DNA from: a virus
Lineage: Duplodnaviria; Heunggongvirae; Uroviricota; Caudoviricetes
Virus record (IMG/VR): IMGVR_UViG_2548876946_000002
Location: 1 to 7,747 of that record
DNA: 7,747 nucleotides
Reading direction: 5' to 3' (one strand)
Positions 1-7,747 of this stretch are shown piece after piece. A model generated the notes under the pieces. The model was given only the letters and a program-made list of their open reading frames with translations, was not told where the DNA came from and made no database searches. The position numbers were made by a program, and so were the translations under genes. Each line of letters opens with the position of its first letter. Position 1 is the first letter of the stretch.

Positions 1-309
1 GATTCCGTCATGTACATTGACAAGAAAGCCTTTGGCATCCTCCTCAGCTACTACGCTCATGGTTCATCTAAGCGAGCAATTGCATCCTACTATCACGCGA
101 CTGCAAAGCCACGCAAGATGTGTGGACGTGGTGGCGAGGGATGGAGAAAACCTTCACTGGCAACCTGTAGAAACGAAATTGACGACATCCTGAAAGCGTC
201 GTTATTTGTTTTGTACCAGCCAATGCAAAATGCTTTCAAAATGCGTAAACGTGTTGAGAAAGTTAAGCATGTTGCTGTTAAAAGCCTTGACATGCAATTA
301 TCCATTTAG
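1..309 (+). CDS. Q-like late antitermination protein, C-terminal part (5' end lies outside the window)
   Basis: Frame is open from base 1 (no in-frame stop before TAG at 307-309), so the gene starts upstream of the window. The C-terminal segment (LLSYYAHGSSKRAIASYY...EIDDILKA) resembles, from memory, the C-terminal region of Q21/Q933W-type antiterminators. Position directly upstream of a promoter/terminator pair and the lysis cassette matches a lambdoid Q gene. Family not verified by search. Confidence 0.5.
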   Translation, partial: DSVMYIDKKAFGILLSYYAHGSSKRAIASYYHATAKPRKMCGRGGEGWRKPSLATCRNEIDDILKASLFVLYQPMQNAFKMRKRVEKVKHVAVKSLDMQLSI

Positions 310-316
310 CCATAAT
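287..316 (+). promoter_or_regulatory. candidate sigma70 promoter, possible late promoter (pR'-like)
   Basis: TTGACA at 287-292, 18-bp spacer, CATAAT at 311-316; predicted start near 323-325. It overlaps the stop codon of the Q-like ORF and sits just upstream of the hairpin at 327-368. An alternative weaker candidate is TTGACG at 178-183 with TTATTT at 201-206. Confidence 0.3.
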
Positions 317-326
317 TAGAAGGTAA

Positions 327-368
327 GCTGCCGTTAGTGACTCTTAAGTTGCAACGGTGGCTTTTTTT
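327..368 (+). terminator. rho-independent terminator (tR'-like) downstream of the Q-like gene
   Basis: Stem 327-341 pairs with 348-361 (about 14 bp including G-U pairs and one bulged A at 336), loop TCTTAA, followed by TTTTTTT at 362-368. The sequence after it (GCACAACAGGTAAGAGCATTGA) resembles what I recall downstream of lambda tR'. Confidence 0.5.
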
Positions 369-501
369 GTTTGCACAACAGGTAAGAGCATTGAACCCGC
401 AGACCTCGCGGAATTGGTGAAAGGTGCCGCGCAGTGCTCTTATCGTTGTGGTGAAGCTCAATGGCGAGCTAGCAGATAGGCGACAGTGAAAATACTAGTC
501 A

Positions 502-576
502 TGTAGCTGACCGCCGCGCGTACTGCAATCGGCAGCGCACCGATGGAAGCCGGTTCGATTCCGGCCGCCACAACCC
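502..576 (+). other. tRNA-like element (degenerate tRNA or tRNA remnant; not a canonical tRNA)
   Basis: Perfect T-arm at 549-565: stem GCCGG/CCGGC with 7-nt loop TTCGATT. An anticodon-like arm at 528-544: stem ATCGG/CCGAT, loop CAGCGCA. However the acceptor stem pairs only 5 of 7 (502-508 with 566-572), the D-arm is poor, there is no U33, and no encoded CCA (3' end is ACCC). Confidence 0.3.
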
Positions 577-662
577 AAACTGAGCCGTAGCCACTGGCTA
601 TCCTGAATTCATCAGTGATAGTTACGCTGCGGCCTTCTACACATGACCTTCGTGAAAGCGGT

Positions 663-698
663 GGCAAGAGGTTGCGCTAACAACCTCCTGCCATTTTT
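663..698 (+). terminator. intrinsic terminator-like hairpin upstream of the holin gene
   Basis: GGCAAGAGGTTG (663-674) pairs with CAACCTCCTGCC (681-692) at 11 of 12 positions, loop CGCTAA, followed by ATTTTT (693-698). The reverse complement has no T-tract, so it is + strand specific. Confidence 0.4.
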
Positions 699-796
699 CC
701 CGTGCATATCGGTCACGAACAAATCTGATTACTAAACACAGTAGCCTGGATTTGTTCTATCAGTAATCGACCTTATTCCTAATTAAATAGAGCAAA

Positions 797-823
797 TCCC
801 CTTATTGGGGGTAAGACATGAAG
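797..823 (+). promoter_or_regulatory. sdi-type stem-loop and dual-start motif of the S holin gene
   Basis: CCCC (798-801) / GGGG (807-810) hairpin with loop TTATT lies immediately 5' of ATG-AAG-ATG (818-826). This matches the lambda S translational control region, where the two starts give the S107 antiholin and S105 holin. Confidence 0.6.
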
Positions 824-1141
824 ATGCCAGAAAAACATGACCTGTTAGCCGCCATTCTCGCGGCAAAGGAACAAGGCATCGGGGCAATCCTTGCGTTTGC
901 AATGGCGTACCTTCGCGGCAGATATAATGGCGGTGCGTTTACAAAAACAGTAATCGACGCAACGATGTGCGCCATTATCGCCTGGTTCATTCGTGACCTT
1001 CTCGACTTCGCCGGACTAAGTAGCAATCTCGCTTATATAACGAGCGTGTTCATCGGCTACATCGGTACTGACTCGATAGGTTCGCTTATCAAACGCTTCG
1101 CTGCTAAAAAAGCCGGAGTAGAAGATGGTGGAAATCAATAA
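818..1141 (+). CDS. S: class I holin S (lambda S-type, 107 aa, dual start Met1-Lys2-Met3)
   Basis: Translation [39 protein letters not shown]... is essentially identical to lambda S as I remember it, with three hydrophobic segments. Its last codons overlap the start of the next gene, as in lambda. Confidence 0.95.
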
Positions 1142-1601
1142 TCAACGTAAGGCGTTCCTCGATATGCTGGCGTGGTCAGAGGGGACAGATAACGGACGTC
1201 AGAAAACCAGGAATCATGGTTATGACGTCATTGTTGGCGGAGAGCTATTCACTGATTACTCCGATCACCCTCGCAAACTTGTCACGCTAAACCCAAAACT
1301 CAAATCAACAGCAGCCGGACGTTACCAGCTTCTTTCCCGTTGGTGGGATGCCTATCGTAAGCAGCTTGGCCTGAAAGACTTCTCTCCGAAAAGCCAGGAC
1401 GCTGTGGCATTGCAACAGATTAAAGAGCGTGGCGCTTTACCGATGATTGACCGCGGTGATATCCGTCAGGCAATCGACCGTTGCAGTAATATCTGGGCTT
1501 CACTGCCGGGGGCTGGTTATGGTCAGTTCGAGCATAAGGCTGACAGCCTGATTGCAAAATTCAAAGAAGCGGGTGGGGCGGTCAGAGAGATTGAGGTATG
1601 A
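1125..1601 (+). CDS. R: endolysin R (lambda-type lytic transglycosylase, 158 aa)
   Basis: Translation [35 protein letters not shown]... is near-identical to lambda R, including the conserved Glu19. Start overlaps the S stop; stop overlaps the Rz start (ATGA at 1598-1601). Confidence 0.95.
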
Positions 1602-2065
1602 GCAGAGTAACCGCGATTATCTCCGCTCTGGTTATCTGCATCATCGTCTGCCTGTCATGGGCGGTTAATCATTACCGTGATAACGCCATTACCTATAAAG
1701 AACAGCGTGATAAAAAAGTCAGTGAGCTGAAGCAGGCGAACGCCACCATTACTGACATGCAGCAGCGCCAGCGTGATGCTGATGCACTCGATGCTAAATA
1801 TACGAAGGAGTTAGCTGATGCGAAAGCTGAAAATGATGCTCTTCGGCGCAAGCTTGATAATGGTGGCAGGGTGCTCGTCAAAGGAAAATGCCCTGTGCCA
1901 GCCTCAGCCGAAACCTCCAGCGCCTCCGGCATGGGCAATGATGCCACCGTCGAACTCTCTCCAGTTGCTGGACGAAACGTTCTCGGTATCCGGGACGGAA
2001 TTATCCGCGACCAAACAGCACTGAGAACGCTTCAGGAATACATCTGGACGCAATGCCTTCGATGA
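1598..2065 (+). CDS. Rz: i-spanin Rz (inner-membrane spanin subunit, 155 aa)
   Basis: The first ~33 residues ([33 protein letters not shown]) match lambda Rz as recalled: an N-terminal transmembrane segment followed by a charged coiled-coil-like region. The C-terminal half is clearly divergent from lambda. Confidence 0.9.
1818..2024 (+). CDS. Rz1: o-spanin Rz1 (outer-membrane lipoprotein, 68 aa), embedded in the +1 frame of Rz
   Basis: Strong SD AAGGAG at 1805-1810, 7 nt before ATG 1818. Signal peptide [19 protein letters not shown] with lipobox-like VAGC, then a proline-rich mature region ([11 protein letters not shown]). Lies entirely inside Rz, the classic embedded spanin arrangement. Confidence 0.8.
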
Positions 2066-2239
2066 TAGCGATAATTCTACTCATCATCCTTCACATCTGG
2101 CTCTGTAGACAGGGTGGTGATCACTTCTGGAGTGAATCCAGATTAAACATCTCATTGCTGATGCTTGATGTTGAGCATCTGGCGCGCGGTAAGGGGCTGC
2201 GTTGAGATAAGAGCCAGTCATCACAAACACCAGGATTTA

Positions 2240-2265
2240 GCCTCGCATTCGCGGGGCTTTTTTAT
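2240..2265 (+). terminator. rho-independent terminator downstream of the lysis cassette
   Basis: GCCTCGC (2240-2246) pairs with GCGGGGC (2251-2257) as a 7-bp stem with one G-U, loop ATTC, followed by TTTTTTAT (2258-2265). Confidence 0.55.
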
Positions 2266-2410
2266 ATCTGCAACAAACGCGCTTCACACGCGCGACTTCT
2301 GAACACAGAACCTTTCAGGATGACCCTTGAGGATGCCGGTTTGGTTATCGGTGCCTTTCTGTGGGCCGGAATCCTGTGTGACAAGGTTCATCACTAAAAG
2401 GTGAGCACTG

Positions 2411-2953
2411 ATGAATTATCCAACTATCGTTAACGGCATCGATTTCCGAGAACTGATTTTTGTGGCAAACAACGATCCGGTTACAGATTCTTTTATGGTG
2501 GCAAAAGCATTTGGAAAGCTGCCGAAGAACGTGGTTCGTGACATTGAGCGAACCATAGAAGCTTGCCCTCCTGAGTTTGATACAAAGCTCAACTTTGAGC
2601 TTTGCTATAAAAACAATGAGTTACAGAATGGTAAGCCGCAAAAATTCTACCGTCTACGCAAGGATGGGTTGATGCTTTTGGTTATGTCCTACACCAAAAA
2701 AGAAGCAATGCGTATCAAAATTGCTTACATCAACGCATTTAACTGGATGTACGCCATGCTTCAGGTTGGTCATCGTCAATTTGAAGAAGAGAGAAATGCC
2801 GTAATGCTGGAGTACATGAAAGAGAAGGATGTTGCCAGCATGTCAGGTCGCCTGCTCAATCGCTGGGGAAAAATTAAGAAGCCTCAGCTACTGGCGAGAA
2901 TTGAACGCCTTGAACAGCACGGGCAAACCGTAATCCCCGGACTCACCAATTAA
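2411..2953 (+). CDS. rha: Rha-family phage regulatory protein (180 aa)
   Basis: The N-terminal ~110 residues (VTDSFMVAKAFGKLPKNVVRDIERTIE...FYRLRKDGLMLLVMSYTKKEAMRIKIAYINAFNWM) fit the Rha domain pattern as I recall it. SD AAGGTGA about 6 nt upstream of ATG 2411. A Rha-like gene between lysis and terminase genes is typical of P22-like phages. Confidence 0.8.
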   Translation: MNYPTIVNGIDFRELIFVANNDPVTDSFMVAKAFGKLPKNVVRDIERTIEACPPEFDTKLNFELCYKNNELQNGKPQKFYRLRKDGLMLLVMSYTKKEAMRIKIAYINAFNWMYAMLQVGHRQFEEERNAVMLEYMKEKDVASMSGRLLNRWGKIKKPQLLARIERLEQHGQTVIPGLTN

Positions 2954-3110
2954 CGGCAGTACCACGAAACAACCCAAGCCAGAAAGTGGGGAAATAACAC
3001 TGGCAGCCACTGAAAGATGAACCTCCTGCCTTATGGCAAAAAAGATTCTTTGTGGTGGCGGACTGATGGAAAGACATCTAATCAAGCAACCACTCCACAG
3101 GGTCATAATT

Positions 3111-3482
3111 ATGAACGACCAGCAAATCGAAAAAGAAATCGTTGAGAAAGGCAAAACGGCACCGCGAATCACCCCGCAGCACATCGAAGACGTGATTAAA
3201 AGCGAGCATTGCTTCACCGCATACGATGGTATTGGCGGAGAGGGCGCTATGGCGACATACAAATCCGCGCTTGATTTAACCGAAAGTCAGGAAGCATTAA
3301 AGCTTCTTACATTCTGCGTCCTGGTGCTGCGCAACGGCTTCACCGTCACCGGCGAAAGCGCCTGCGCCAGCCCGGAAAACTTCGACCCGGAGATCGGTCG
3401 CAAGATCGCCCGCGAAAATGCGGTGAATAAAATCTGGATGCTGGAAGGTTACTTGCTGAAGCAGAAGTTAAGCGAACAGTAG
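3111..3482 (+). CDS. hypothetical phage protein, probably N4 gp49 / Sf6 gp66 family (about 123 aa)
   Basis: Start chosen at ATG 3111 (AGGGT 7 nt upstream) rather than the longer ORF from ATG 3033, which has a CCTCC-rich upstream region and no SD. The motif LRNGFTVTGESACASPENFDPEIGRKIARENAVNKIW matches my recollection of the N4 gp49/Sf6 gp66 family; not verified. Confidence 0.65.
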   Translation: MNDQQIEKEIVEKGKTAPRITPQHIEDVIKSEHCFTAYDGIGGEGAMATYKSALDLTESQEALKLLTFCVLVLRNGFTVTGESACASPENFDPEIGRKIARENAVNKIWMLEGYLLKQKLSEQ

Positions 3483-3585
3483 TTATTACAAAAGCCATTC
3501 CCTACAGAGTGGCTTTGATAATGGCTTATACCCTACACGGGATAACTTAACTGATATCCCTTTTAACGGATAAACGGAGCCAACA

Positions 3586-3828
3586 ATGGCAGAGATTATT
3601 CCCATGACTGAAGAACAGAAATTCCAGTTAGAGATTTACAAACTGGTCATGAACCAGAACGCAGCCGCAGAAGAAGCATTTCAGTTCATTGGCACTGACG
3701 AACTGAAGCTTGAGCTATTCAAAATTCACTTCCAGTCAGGCGGCGCTAATTCAGATATCACGACCCGAACTATCGAAGCGGTGCGTAAATCGAAGGAAGC
3801 GTTAGACCTGTTCACTACCGGAGCGTAA
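3586..3828 (+). CDS. hypothetical small acidic protein (80 aa), function unknown
   Basis: SD ACGGAG about 7 nt upstream of ATG 3586; preceded by two hairpins at 3492-3517 and 3539-3560. No recognisable motif; mildly acidic. Sits in the slot between the Rha gene and the small terminase gene. Confidence 0.6.
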   Translation: MAEIIPMTEEQKFQLEIYKLVMNQNAAAEEAFQFIGTDELKLELFKIHFQSGGANSDITTRTIEAVRKSKEALDLFTTGA

Positions 3829-3907
3829 ACATGGCAACTCAAGGTTTCGACAACCCATCCAAATTCCGCGATGAATGGGATAAGCAAGCAGAAGGGAAAT
3901 AATCAAT

Positions 3908-4333
3908 ATGGCGACTGAGAAAAAGAATGTCGGTCGCCCTTCGGATTACCTGCCGGAGGTGGCTGATGATATCTGTGCGCTGCTTGCCTCCGGGGAAAGT
4001 CTGGTTAAGGTTTGCAAGCGCCCCGGCATGCCAGCAAAGGCTACTGTATTTCGCTGGCTGTCAGAGCATGACGAATTTAGAGACAAGTACGCGAAGGCAA
4101 CTGAGGCACGAGCTGATTCTATTTTCGAAGAGATATTCGAAATTGCTGACAATGCGATTCCAGATGCTGCTGAGGTGGCAAAGGCAAGACTTCGCGTTGA
4201 TACCCGCAAATGGGCGCTGGCCAGAATGAATCCCCGTAAGTATGGCGACAAGGTAACTAATGAGCTTGTCGGCAAAGACGGTGGCGCAATCCAGATTGAA
4301 ACATCACCGATGAGCACTCTATTCGGAAAATGA
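3908..4333 (+). CDS. terminase small subunit (Sf6 gp1-like, 141 aa)
   Basis: N-terminal motif GRPSDYLPEVADDICALLASGESLVKVCKRPGMPAKATVFRWL is the characteristic DNA-binding region of this terminase small subunit family. Its stop overlaps the start of the large terminase gene (ATGA at 4330-4333). Confidence 0.9.
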   Translation: MATEKKNVGRPSDYLPEVADDICALLASGESLVKVCKRPGMPAKATVFRWLSEHDEFRDKYAKATEARADSIFEEIFEIADNAIPDAAEVAKARLRVDTRKWALARMNPRKYGDKVTNELVGKDGGAIQIETSPMSTLFGK

Positions 4334-5742
4334 CCTCGATTAATCCTATCTTTGAACCGTTCATTGAGGCGCATCGCTACAAAGTCGCCAAAGGCGGTCG
4401 AGGTAGCGGTAAGTCATGGGCAATTGCGAGGCTGCTTGTTGAAGCGGCGCGTCGGCAGCCTGTGCGTATTCTCTGCGCTCGTGAACTGCAAAACAGTATC
4501 AGCGATTCGGTAATCCGGTTGCTTGAAGATACCATCGAGCGTGAAGGGTATTCGGCTGAGTTTGAAATTCAGCGCTCAATGATTCGTCATCTCGGAACGA
4601 ATGCTGAATTCATGTTCTACGGCATCAAAAACAACCCGACGAAGATTAAATCGCTCGAAGGCATTGATATCTGCTGGGTGGAAGAAGCGGAAGCGGTAAC
4701 GAAGGAATCATGGGACATCCTGATACCAACCATCCGCAAGCCGTTTTCCGAAATATGGGTGAGCTTCAACCCGAAAAATATCCTCGACGATACCTATCAG
4801 CGATTCGTTGTAAATCCTCCCGATGATATTTGCCTGCTGACGGTGAACTACACCGACAACCCGCACTTTCCTGAAGTTCTCCGTCTGGAGATGGAAGAGT
4901 GTAAACGCAGAAACCCGACACTGTATCGTCACATCTGGCTGGGTGAGCCGGTAAGCGCAAGTGATATGGCAATCATCAAACGTGAATGGCTTGAAGCTGC
5001 AACCGATGCGCACAAGAAACTCGGATGGAAAGCGAAAGGCGCTGTTGTTTCTGCGCATGACCCATCAGATACAGGGCCAGATGCTAAAGGTTATGCATCG
5101 CGTCACGGTTCGGTAGTTAAGCGCATTGCCGAAGGTCTGCTGATGGACATCAATGAAGGTGCTGACTGGGCAACTTCGCTGGCGATTGAAGACGGTGCTG
5201 ACCATTACCTGTGGGATGGTGATGGTGTTGGTGCCGGGCTACGCAGACAGACAACGGAAGCGTTCTCCGGCAAGAAAATCACCGCCACGATGTTCAAAGG
5301 CAGCGAATCGCCATTCGATGAAGATGCGCCGTATCAGGCCGGAGCATGGGCTGATGAAGTCGTACAGGGTGACAACGTTCGCACTATTGGCGATGTGTTC
5401 CGCAATAAGCGAGCGCAATTCTATTACGCGCTGGCTGACAGGCTGTATCTGACATATCGGGCGGTTGTCTACGGTGAGTATGCAGACCCAGACGACATGC
5501 TGAGTTTCGACAAAGAAGCGATAGGCGAGAAGATGCTGGAGAAGCTGTTTGCAGAACTGACGCAGATTCAGCGCAAATTCAATAACAACGGGAAGCTGGA
5601 GCTTATGACTAAGGTCGAAATGAAGCAGAAGCTCGGTATTCCATCTCCTAACCTGGCTGATGCGCTGATGATGTGTATGCATTGCCCGGCATTGGTCCGC
5701 GAAGAAACAGAAATATACGTTCCCTCATCCTCCGGTTGGTAA
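4330..5742 (+). CDS. terminase large subunit (Sf6 gp2-like, 470 aa)
   Basis: Walker A-like motif KVAKGGRGSGKSWAIARLL near the N-terminus, and an acidic C-terminal nuclease-domain region. Size and order (small terminase, large terminase, portal) match an Sf6-type packaging module. Confidence 0.95.
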   Translation: MTSINPIFEPFIEAHRYKVAKGGRGSGKSWAIARLLVEAARRQPVRILCARELQNSISDSVIRLLEDTIEREGYSAEFEIQRSMIRHLGTNAEFMFYGIKNNPTKIKSLEGIDICWVEEAEAVTKESWDILIPTIRKPFSEIWVSFNPKNILDDTYQRFVVNPPDDICLLTVNYTDNPHFPEVLRLEMEECKRRNPTLYRHIWLGEPVSASDMAIIKREWLEAATDAHKKLGWKAKGAVVSAHDPSDTGPDAKGYASRHGSVVKRIAEGLLMDINEGADWATSLAIEDGADHYLWDGDGVGAGLRRQTTEAFSGKKITATMFKGSESPFDEDAPYQAGAWADEVVQGDNVRTIGDVFRNKRAQFYYALADRLYLTYRAVVYGEYADPDDMLSFDKEAIGEKMLEKLFAELTQIQRKFNNNGKLELMTKVEMKQKLGIPSPNLADALMMCMHCPALVREETEIYVPSSSGW

Positions 5743-5744
5743 AC

Positions 5745-7733
5745 ATGGCAGAGACATTAGAGAAAAAACATGAGCGGATCATGCTCAGGTTTGACCGCGC
5801 CTATTCTCCACAGCAGGAAGTGCGCGAAAAGTGCATTGAAGCTACGAGGTTTGCTCGTGTCCCCGGAGGTCAATGGGAAGGAGCAACGGCGGCTGGAACT
5901 AAGCTTGATGAGCAGTTCGAGAAGTATCCTAAGTTTGAAATCAATAAGGTAGCAACTGAACTTAACCGCATCATTGCAGAATACCGCAATAACAGAATCA
6001 CCGTTAAGTTTCGTCCTGGTGACAGAGAGGCAAGCGAAGAGTTAGCCAATAAATTAAATGGTCTGTTCCGTGCTGACTACGAAGAAACTGATGGCGGTGA
6101 GGCTTGTGATAATGCATTTGACGACGCTGCTACTGGTGGTTTCGGTTGCTTCCGTTTGACGTCGATGCTGGTCAATGAATACGACCCCATGGACGATCGT
6201 CAGCGTATTGCTATTGAACCAATATACGACCCGTCGCGCTCTGTGTGGTTTGACCCTGACGCTAAGAAGTACGACAAATCTGACGCGTTGTGGGCGTTCT
6301 GCATGTATTCGTTGTCACCTGAAAAATATGAGGCTGAATACGGAAAGAAACCTCCTGCTTCTCTGGATGTAACGTCTATGACCAGTTGGGAATATGACTG
6401 GTTTGATGCAGATGTTATTTACATAGCGAAGTATTACGAAGTTCGTAAAGAGTCTGTTGACGTCATCAGTTATCGACATCCAATCACTGGAGAGATTGCA
6501 ACATACGACAGTGATCAGGTTGAAGATATTGAAGATGAACTGGCAATAACTGGATTTCATGAAGTGGCAAGGCGCTCAGTGAAGCGCCGTCGTGTGTATG
6601 TATCCGTAGTGGATGGTGATGGTTTCCTTGAGAAACCTCGACGTATTCCTGGTGAGCATATCCCCCTCATCCCGGTTTATGGAAAACGCTGGTTCATTGA
6701 TGACATTGAGCGTGTCGAAGGACATATTGCAAAAGCAATGGATCCACAGCGTTTGTACAACCTTCAGGTATCAATGCTGGCTGATACTGCAGCGCAAGAC
6801 CCCGGTCAGATCCCTATAGTTGGCATGGAGCAAATTCGTGGACTTGAGAAGCACTGGGAGGCTCGCAACAAGAAACGCCCAGCGTTCTTGCCGTTGCGCG
6901 AAGTGAGAGATAAATCTGGCAACATTATCGCTGGAGCAACCCCGGCAGGATATACACAGCCTGCGGTTATGAATCAGGCATTGGCTGCATTACTACAGCA
7001 AACCAGTGCTGATATTCAGGAGGTTACAGGCGGCAGTCAGGCCATGCAGCAGATGCCAAGTAATATTGCTCAGGAAACGGTTAACAACTTGATGAACAGA
7101 GCAGATATGGCTTCGTTTATCTATCTGGACAATATGGCGAAAAGTCTTAAACGCGCTGGTGAAGTATGGCTGTCAATGGCGCGTGAAGTGTACGGTTCAG
7201 AGCGTGAAGTGCGCATCGTTAACGAAGATGGAAGTGATGATATCGCTGTCCTGAGCGCACAGGTTGTTGACAGGCAAACAGGTGCTGTTGTTGCGTTAAA
7301 TGACCTTTCTGTCGGTCGATACGATGTGACGGTTGATGTTGGACCAAGCTACACAGCACGACGTGATGCAACGGTTTCTGTACTGACAAATGTCCTTAGC
7401 TCTATGCTTCCAACAGACCCAATGCGCCCGGCAATTCAGGGTATTATTCTGGACAATATCGATGGCGAAGGCCTTGATGACTTCAAAGAGTACAACCGAA
7501 ACCAACTGCTGATATCTGGTATTGCAAAACCACGCAATGAGAAAGAGCAGCAGATTGTTCAACAGGCGCAAATGGCAGCACAAAGCCAGCCAAATCCTGA
7601 AATGGTTCTCGCTCAGGCGCAAATGGTAGCAGCGCAGGCAGAAGCGCAAAAAGCAACTAACGAAACTGCTCAAACTCAAATCAAAGCATTTACTGAACCG
7701 CCCCGGTTTTCCTGGAGAGTGTTTTATCTGTGA
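5745..7733 (+). CDS. portal protein (P22 gp1 / Sf6 gp3 type), 3' end interrupted by an IS insertion
   Basis: Motifs IAKYYEV, VKRRRVYVSVVDGDG, IPGEHIPLIPVYGKRWF, VNNLMNRADMASFIYLDN and GRYDVTVDVGPSY align with P22 portal as recalled. Start set at ATG 5745, 2 nt after the terminase stop; the ORF track's 5673 start is an upstream GTG extension. Portal-like sequence ends at ...TQIKAF (about 7694); the last 13 codons to TGA 7731-7733 read into IS sequence. Confidence 0.85.
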   Translation: MAETLEKKHERIMLRFDRAYSPQQEVREKCIEATRFARVPGGQWEGATAAGTKLDEQFEKYPKFEINKVATELNRIIAEYRNNRITVKFRPGDREASEELANKLNGLFRADYEETDGGEACDNAFDDAATGGFGCFRLTSMLVNEYDPMDDRQRIAIEPIYDPSRSVWFDPDAKKYDKSDALWAFCMYSLSPEKYEAEYGKKPPASLDVTSMTSWEYDWFDADVIYIAKYYEVRKESVDVISYRHPITGEIATYDSDQVEDIEDELAITGFHEVARRSVKRRRVYVSVVDGDGFLEKPRRIPGEHIPLIPVYGKRWFIDDIERVEGHIAKAMDPQRLYNLQVSMLADTAAQDPGQIPIVGMEQIRGLEKHWEARNKKRPAFLPLREVRDKSGNIIAGATPAGYTQPAVMNQALAALLQQTSADIQEVTGGSQAMQQMPSNIAQETVNNLMNRADMASFIYLDNMAKSLKRAGEVWLSMAREVYGSEREVRIVNEDGSDDIAVLSAQVVDRQTGAVVALNDLSVGRYDVTVDVGPSYTARRDATVSVLTNVLSSMLPTDPMRPAIQGIILDNIDGEGLDDFKEYNRNQLLISGIAKPRNEKEQQIVQQAQMAAQSQPNPEMVLAQAQMVAAQAEAQKATNETAQTQIKAFTEPPRFSWRVFYL

Positions 7734-7747
7734 ACTCAGGCTGCCAG
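7695..7747. mobile_element. terminal inverted repeat of an IS3-family insertion sequence (IS629/IS1203-like), partial, continues beyond the window
   Basis: TGAACCGCCCCGGTTTTCCTGGAGAGTGTTTTATCTGTGAACTCAGGCTGCCAG starts with the IS3-family TG terminus and closely matches the IS629 terminal repeat as I remember it. The orientation suggests the right end is read on the + strand, with transposase genes on the minus strand outside the window. The junction falls inside the portal reading frame. Confidence 0.6.

Follow-up and report, generated by a model that had tools for sequence, protein, structure and literature searches.

Origin and gene content of the window

The DNA analysed here (7,747 nucleotides, referred to as the window) raises one main question: what has happened to its portal gene, whose resemblance to all relatives breaks off shortly before the sequence itself ends? 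We consider it very likely (a probability of about 0.9) that a 1310-bp element of the IS629/IS1203 type transposed into the last tenth of an Sf6-like portal gene, at codon 650/651, thereby duplicating the trinucleotide TAC, and that it now lies antisense to the late operon.

Positions 1-7695 of the window are 100% identical (0 mismatches) to the Z1322HEC0003 prophage of E. coli (NZ_CP148579.1; this locus is denoted L005), in which the portal gene is intact (2127 nt, 708 codons). Sf6 is 99.2% identical to the window across the portal region, and here too the identity stops at base 7695. The preliminary description of this DNA had already noted that the portal homology stops abruptly, and the two comparisons bear this out: identity to both Sf6 and Z1322HEC0003 is perfect or continuous up to 7695 and then ends. 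Judged by these similarities, the source of the window is an Sf6-like (Lederbergvirus-type, P22-like) E. coli prophage. The features used below are the following (window positions):

1-309, plus strand: 3' part of the gene for the Q-family late antiterminator (annotation of the identical prophage, L005 5791-6309)
5' of the portal gene, in addition to Q: lysis genes for holin, endolysin and Rz (source as for Q)
Also 5' of the portal gene: Rha-family regulator, Gp49-family gene and DUF2560 gene (source as for Q)
Upstream of the portal gene: small and large terminase genes (source as for Q)
5745-7733, plus strand: chimeric portal open reading frame, 662 codons and stop (the ATG matches the annotated start in L005 and Sf6)
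7691-7693, no strand: target-site duplication TAC, left copy (empty site compared with both junctions)
7694-7718, no strand: imperfect terminal inverted repeat, TG... (the reference element's two ends compared)
7694-7747, minus strand: right end (orfB-distal, IRR) of an IS3-family element of the IS629/IS1203 type (54/54 identical to L002 2500-2553, the locus of the copy in E. coli O157:H7 TR01)
7695-7733, plus strand: 12 foreign codons (7695-7730; EPPRFSWRVFYL) and a TGA stop (7731-7733), antisense of the IS end

The Rha-family transcriptional regulator and Gp49-family genes occupy window positions 2411-2953 and 3111-3482, flanked by the lysis cassette on one side and the terminase genes on the other. 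Related prophages differ here (visible as coverage gaps in the genome comparisons), and the stretch resembles a variable moron region. A scan of the window against Rfam returned no family reaching the gathering score.

The left junction

Only 54 nucleotides of the element fall inside the window, whose end cuts the element off. From 7694 the window reads TGAACCGCCCCGGTTTTCCTGGAGAGTG..., with the terminus written TGAACCGCCCCGG..., and in alignment the sequence common to the window and to independent IS copies in different contexts starts exactly at the TG of 7694. By chance, the native gene and the IS both have TG at 7694-7695 (native ...TTTAC TGCCC); because these two bases are common to both, phage homology appears to reach 7695. 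The preliminary description had recognised the terminal repeat but placed the start of the element at 7695, one base too far downstream. The first 13 nucleotides of the terminal repeats match perfectly (13/13) and 22 of 25 positions agree with the other end. The TG...CA termini of the IS3 family are present as well, at window position 7694 onward and on a second contig discussed below (L006 1-56, ending ...CCGGGGCGGTTCA).

The 53-mer covering 7695-7747 gave 22,761 matches in 4,039 of the 5,426 complete E. coli genomes (E=1e-18, far beyond chance), and these matches sit under features annotated as IS3 family transposase. A chance resemblance to an IS is ruled out by such genome-wide matches at E=1e-18 together with the exact alignment of the terminus. 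When both reference loci are turned to the orientation of the window, orfA and orfB read from the minus strand. What the window contains is thus the right end of the element, which lies antisense to the late operon.

It might be argued that the sequence after 7694 is simply a native alternative C-terminus of some Sf6-like portals. No support was found for this reading, to which we give virtually no weight and which we regard as ruled out: every full-length relative continues TGCCCAGCAGG... at this point, the native sequence at the site (searched as a 36-mer) is present in 102 viral contigs of IMG/VR, and the 54 nucleotides recur, annotated as IS3 family transposase ends, in thousands of unrelated genomic contexts. 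Both the Sf6 continuation and the matches to IS copies contradict it. Comparison with intact Sf6-like portals had been proposed beforehand as a check, and none of them runs through the post-junction sequence.

None of the collections searched (complete E. coli genomes, GTDB representatives, IMG/VR, JGI metagenomes) contained the exact left junction between portal and IS. The portal insertion allele of the window accordingly occurs in 0 of the 5,426 complete E. coli genomes.

The right junction and the target-site duplication

If an element had been inserted by transposition into the portal gene, its other end should be followed by the rest of that gene. A search for this pattern (IS left end, 0-10 bases, portal continuation) retrieved one IMG/VR contig, IMGVR_UViG_2548876946_000015 (L006), and none among the GTDB representatives. 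L006 opens with 56 nucleotides of the IS left end (...CCCGGGGCGGTTCA), 56/56 identical to the TR01-type isoform and 1 base different from each of the other two reference copies. This end is followed by TAC (57-59) and then by the portal continuation TGCCCAGCAGGATGCG... (TGCCCAGCAGG...). Positions 57-3000 of L006 equal L005 13691-16634 at 100% identity, and its open reading frames comprise the last 58 portal codons as well as full-length genes for scaffold, coat and the following head/tail-side proteins. L006 thus supplies everything for which the preliminary description had suggested to look on this side: the other IS end, the second TAC and the remainder of the portal.

The empty site in Z1322HEC0003 reads GCATT-TAC-TGCCCAG, with a single TAC (L005 13691-13693). 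In the window the left junction reads GCATT-TAC-[TGAACC..., and in L006 the right junction reads ...GGTTCA]-TAC-TGCCCAG. The empty site and the two junctions fit a simple transposition with a 3-bp duplication, assuming that L006 represents the same insertion. A duplicated TAC had been anticipated correctly, although its left copy lies at 7691-7693 and not at 7692-7694. We infer that one genome, or two equivalent ones, gave rise to both the window and L006.

The window and L006 each end about 55 nt into the element. A break some 55 nt inside a multicopy repeat is the usual signature of short-read assembly, which most likely explains where the window ends. The same circumstance might be turned against the junction itself: the window stops in a high-copy repeat, the kind of sequence where assemblers are least reliable, so that the portal might be intact in the organism and IS reads (or a chimeric read) might have been attached wrongly at the contig end. 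We judge such an artefact extremely unlikely, as the join lies at the biological terminus of the element (TG...) and not at an arbitrary internal point, while an independent contig has the complementary end with the matching duplication.

An IS-mediated rearrangement deserves more attention. Here the junction would be the edge of an adjacent deletion, or of an inversion between two copies, with the rest of the portal and the scaffold and coat genes absent or elsewhere, and L006 would derive from another strain. The window indeed holds a single junction; its contig was not found beside L006 in IMG/VR, where the 80 matches listed of the 102 to the native 36-mer included none from the IMG taxon of L006; contigs with IS629 at both ends occur (L043, see below); and many E. 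coli genomes offer dozens of recombinable copies. Against this stands the reciprocal junction at the exact site, where both ends belong to the same isoform, the 3-bp duplication is perfect and the flanks are 100% identical. Such a match would otherwise be a remarkable coincidence, whereas it is predicted by simple insertion, and we therefore regard a rearrangement as highly unlikely.

Under simple insertion, the IS3-family element would have entered codon 650/651 of the 708-codon portal gene and duplicated the target TAC, with its transposase genes antisense to the late operon. The resulting portal would consist of 650 native and 12 foreign residues. The middle of the inserted IS would presumably be complete, and the late genes downstream are probably still transcribed by Q-antiterminated polymerase.

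Identity of the element

The copy of E. coli O157:H7 TR01, whose end equals that of the window at 54/54 positions, is 1310 bp long and has its own flanking 3-bp duplication (GAC). This identity upholds the earlier assignment of the terminal sequence to an IS3-family, IS629-like element. The orfA and orfB products of the TR01 type match the NCBIfam IS3 family transposase model NF033516 (orfB with 313 bits at a cutoff of 160). Compared with the end in the window, two annotated copies, one named IS629 (1310 bp, duplication TAA) and the other IS1203-family, each differ at 1 of 54 positions. Over its whole length the TR01-type copy shares 94.7% identity with the annotated IS629 and 95.3% with the IS1203-family copy. 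Taking the visible ends of both junctions together, 108 of 110 nt equal the annotated IS629, represented here by a genomic copy.

Full-length copies with ends identical to both junctions are 1310 bp long and have a frameshifted transposase. The interior of the element (length, orfA/orfB, frameshift) lies outside the window and L006 and is known by proxy from these full-length copies. On the basis of its sequence, the element is an IS3-family member and a putative isoform of IS629/IS1203, at roughly 95% identity.

IS629 itself (with the synonyms or isoforms IS1203 and IS3411; Shigella sonnei and EHEC E. coli) has the same reference length of 1310 bp, TG...CA termini, the same imperfect terminal repeats, a 3-bp target duplication, a programmed frameshift between orfA and orfB and a preference for prophages. 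It differs in that the best-matching full-length copy (TR01 type) is only 94.7%/95.3% identical, which is at the edge of the usual isoform range. Published target duplications of IS629 measure 3-4 bp, and in O157 genomes 62% of the IS629 copies reside in prophages or prophage-like elements (PMC3271280).

The truncated portal protein

The ORF list gives GTG at 5673 as the start of the portal frame; by comparison with Sf6 and the annotated prophage, the biological start is the ATG at 5745. From there the chimeric frame encodes 650 native residues (...TAQTQIKAFT), identical to those of the Z1322HEC0003 portal, followed by the 12 IS-encoded residues EPPRFSWRVFYL. The intact allele differs from Sf6 gp3 by 5 substitutions over the full length. 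At the junction the codon of Thr650 (ACT) is rebuilt from the native AC and a T from the IS. The native part consequently ends one residue beyond the ...QIKAF reported earlier, and a run of foreign codons before a stop was foreseen correctly, except that it counts 12 and not 13 (TGA at 7731-7733). Of the 708 native residues 58 are lost, within the 50-70 that had been predicted. An exact-product look-up of the 662-aa chimeric portal gave no record.

The best match of the portal in the PDB is the Sf6 gene 3 protein (7sfs, residues 1-651, 1455 bits), and the P22 portal (3lj5) is matched at E=2.6e-93. In the Sf6 tail machine as solved at 2.7 Å, the barrel helix is modelled for residues 600-671 while 672-708 are disordered (PMC9728967). 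In the chimera, the complete C-terminal barrel (600-671) and tail (672-708) are not retained: residues 651-708 are replaced by EPPRFSWRVFYL, a tail that contains two prolines. Given a native end at 650 and a barrel spanning 600-671, 21 of the 72 ordered barrel residues (651-671) are therefore lost together with the whole disordered tail.

How severe this loss is can be approached through P22. In P22 gp1 the last 50 residues (676-725), which the dif1 mutant lacks, can be dispensed with (PMC4992974). Like dif1, the allele of the window is a C-terminal truncation of a P22-like portal barrel. Sf6 residue 650 aligns to about P22 residue 638, however, so the cut lies about 40 residues deeper than in dif1, inside the ordered barrel helix, and is followed by a proline-containing foreign tail. 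The view of the preliminary description that the C-terminus of the P22 portal is partly dispensable thus holds for residues 676-725 only (PMC4992974) and does not extend to the position of this cut. For P22 it has also been found that the core of the portal (residues 1-602) assembles into rings in vitro and that procapsids contain the barrel in an unfolded state (PMC5290284). The truncated portal is likely still able to form rings and procapsids, while genome retention, delivery and the interaction with ejection proteins would be impaired or uncertain. The earlier suggestion that the truncated protein might still assemble is in that sense fair, but infectivity finds no support in existing data.

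On the other side of the element, the portal frame of the 3' remnant is open through the final 90 nt of the IS or more. It meets a stop at IS positions 1219-1221 of the reference copy, with no ATG, GTG or TTG between that stop and the junction. The first in-frame ATG of the remnant is native Met656, and efficient production of a stand-alone C-terminal fragment is therefore unlikely.

Effect on the late operon

As a result of the insertion, the portal stop is separated from the scaffold gene by about 1.3 kb of untranslated antisense sequence; the scaffold gene retains its own ribosome-binding site. Scanning a full-length reference IS in the orientation of the window with promoter and terminator consensus sequences gave 0 promoter-like and 2 terminator-like sites, which is no excess over shuffled sequence. 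The scan provides no evidence of a strong terminator or an outward promoter in the IS. In lambda, polymerase modified by Q passes through terminators. As the late operon of the window is driven by a Q-family antiterminator, strong polarity is not expected; polarity on the downstream genes is probably limited, with readthrough into the late genes. According to the preliminary description, the IS sets the scaffold and coat genes apart from the late operon. Physically this holds, over about 1.3 kb; functionally it does not follow, since the Q antiterminator makes readthrough likely and the downstream genes are intact.

IS629 is a known substrate of the IS-excision enhancer (IEE) in EHEC, and the insertion could therefore be reversible in some hosts.

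Other insertions in Sf6-like and lambdoid prophages

The same portal gene carries an independent IS629-type insertion in contig IMGVR_UViG_2778261301_000001 (L043, 1-200, minus strand), 81 nt downstream of the site in the window. The junction reads ...GACAAAGCAG|TGAACCGCCCCGGGAATCCTGGAGACTAA... and represents the IS left end, so that this IS runs in the same direction as the portal and opposite to the IS of the window. Native portal sequence continues as far as V677 and gives way to 8 foreign codons (NRPGNPGD) before a stop. Contig L043 measures 10.7 kb, and each of its extremities carries an IS629 end (65-77 and 10634-10646). Among the matches listed from the 102 IMG/VR contigs with the native 36-mer at the site of the window, it is the only one with an IS629 end in the portal region. 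IS629 insertions in Sf6-like portals are recurrent but rare.

Other contigs and genomes show further hits at different places. In IMGVR_UViG_2519899565_000009 (1-60, minus strand) the contig ends within the scaffold gene: the native sequence ...CCTGAGAATGAA is followed by TGAGGTGTACT, where AGCCAGGATG is expected. These 11 nt resemble the start of a further insertion sequence beginning with TG, but are too few to identify it. A related Sf6-like prophage in E. coli 98224 (NZ_CP173472.1; L004 8985-16940) has a portal gene divided near codon 230 by an IS3-family element that a group II intron (ltrA) interrupts in turn. The same prophage carries a separate IS1203-family copy between scaffold and coat, showing that its morphogenesis cluster was hit multiple times. 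A complete 1310-bp IS629-type copy is found in yet another Sf6-like contig (IMGVR_UViG_2541047907_000004, 11404-12713), about 7.8 kb upstream of the portal.

Comparable events are described for the Stx and lambdoid prophages of EHEC (PA2/PA8 Stx phages, PPompW_EH2201), where IS629 likewise interrupts or separates prophage genes at sites that differ from strain to strain. The present case is unlike these in that a P22/Sf6-like podovirus prophage has been hit, in the part of its portal gene that codes for the barrel.

Implications

The kind of event described here is routine: the accumulation of IS629-type elements in prophages is ordinary and already known, and IS629 insertion sites serve as strain-specific markers in EHEC typing. 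For the prophage itself, the result is that its portal should be flagged as C-terminally truncated, which matters when it is called intact or defective.

Whether the prophage is viable, with a truncated portal that supports infectious particles and Q-antiterminated readthrough of the antisense IS, is doubtful, and we consider this rather unlikely. If true, it would mean, together with the L043 allele, that the Sf6-type portal tolerates losing nearly a third of its ordered barrel, and the barrel-coding 3' end of the gene would be a tolerated landing zone for IS629. Alternatively, the recurrent IS hits between portal and scaffold could reflect selection that cripples virion production while other prophage genes are kept. 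A mildly interesting angle is that the alleles of the window and of L043 would be natural truncations of an Sf6-type portal barrel, open to functional testing.
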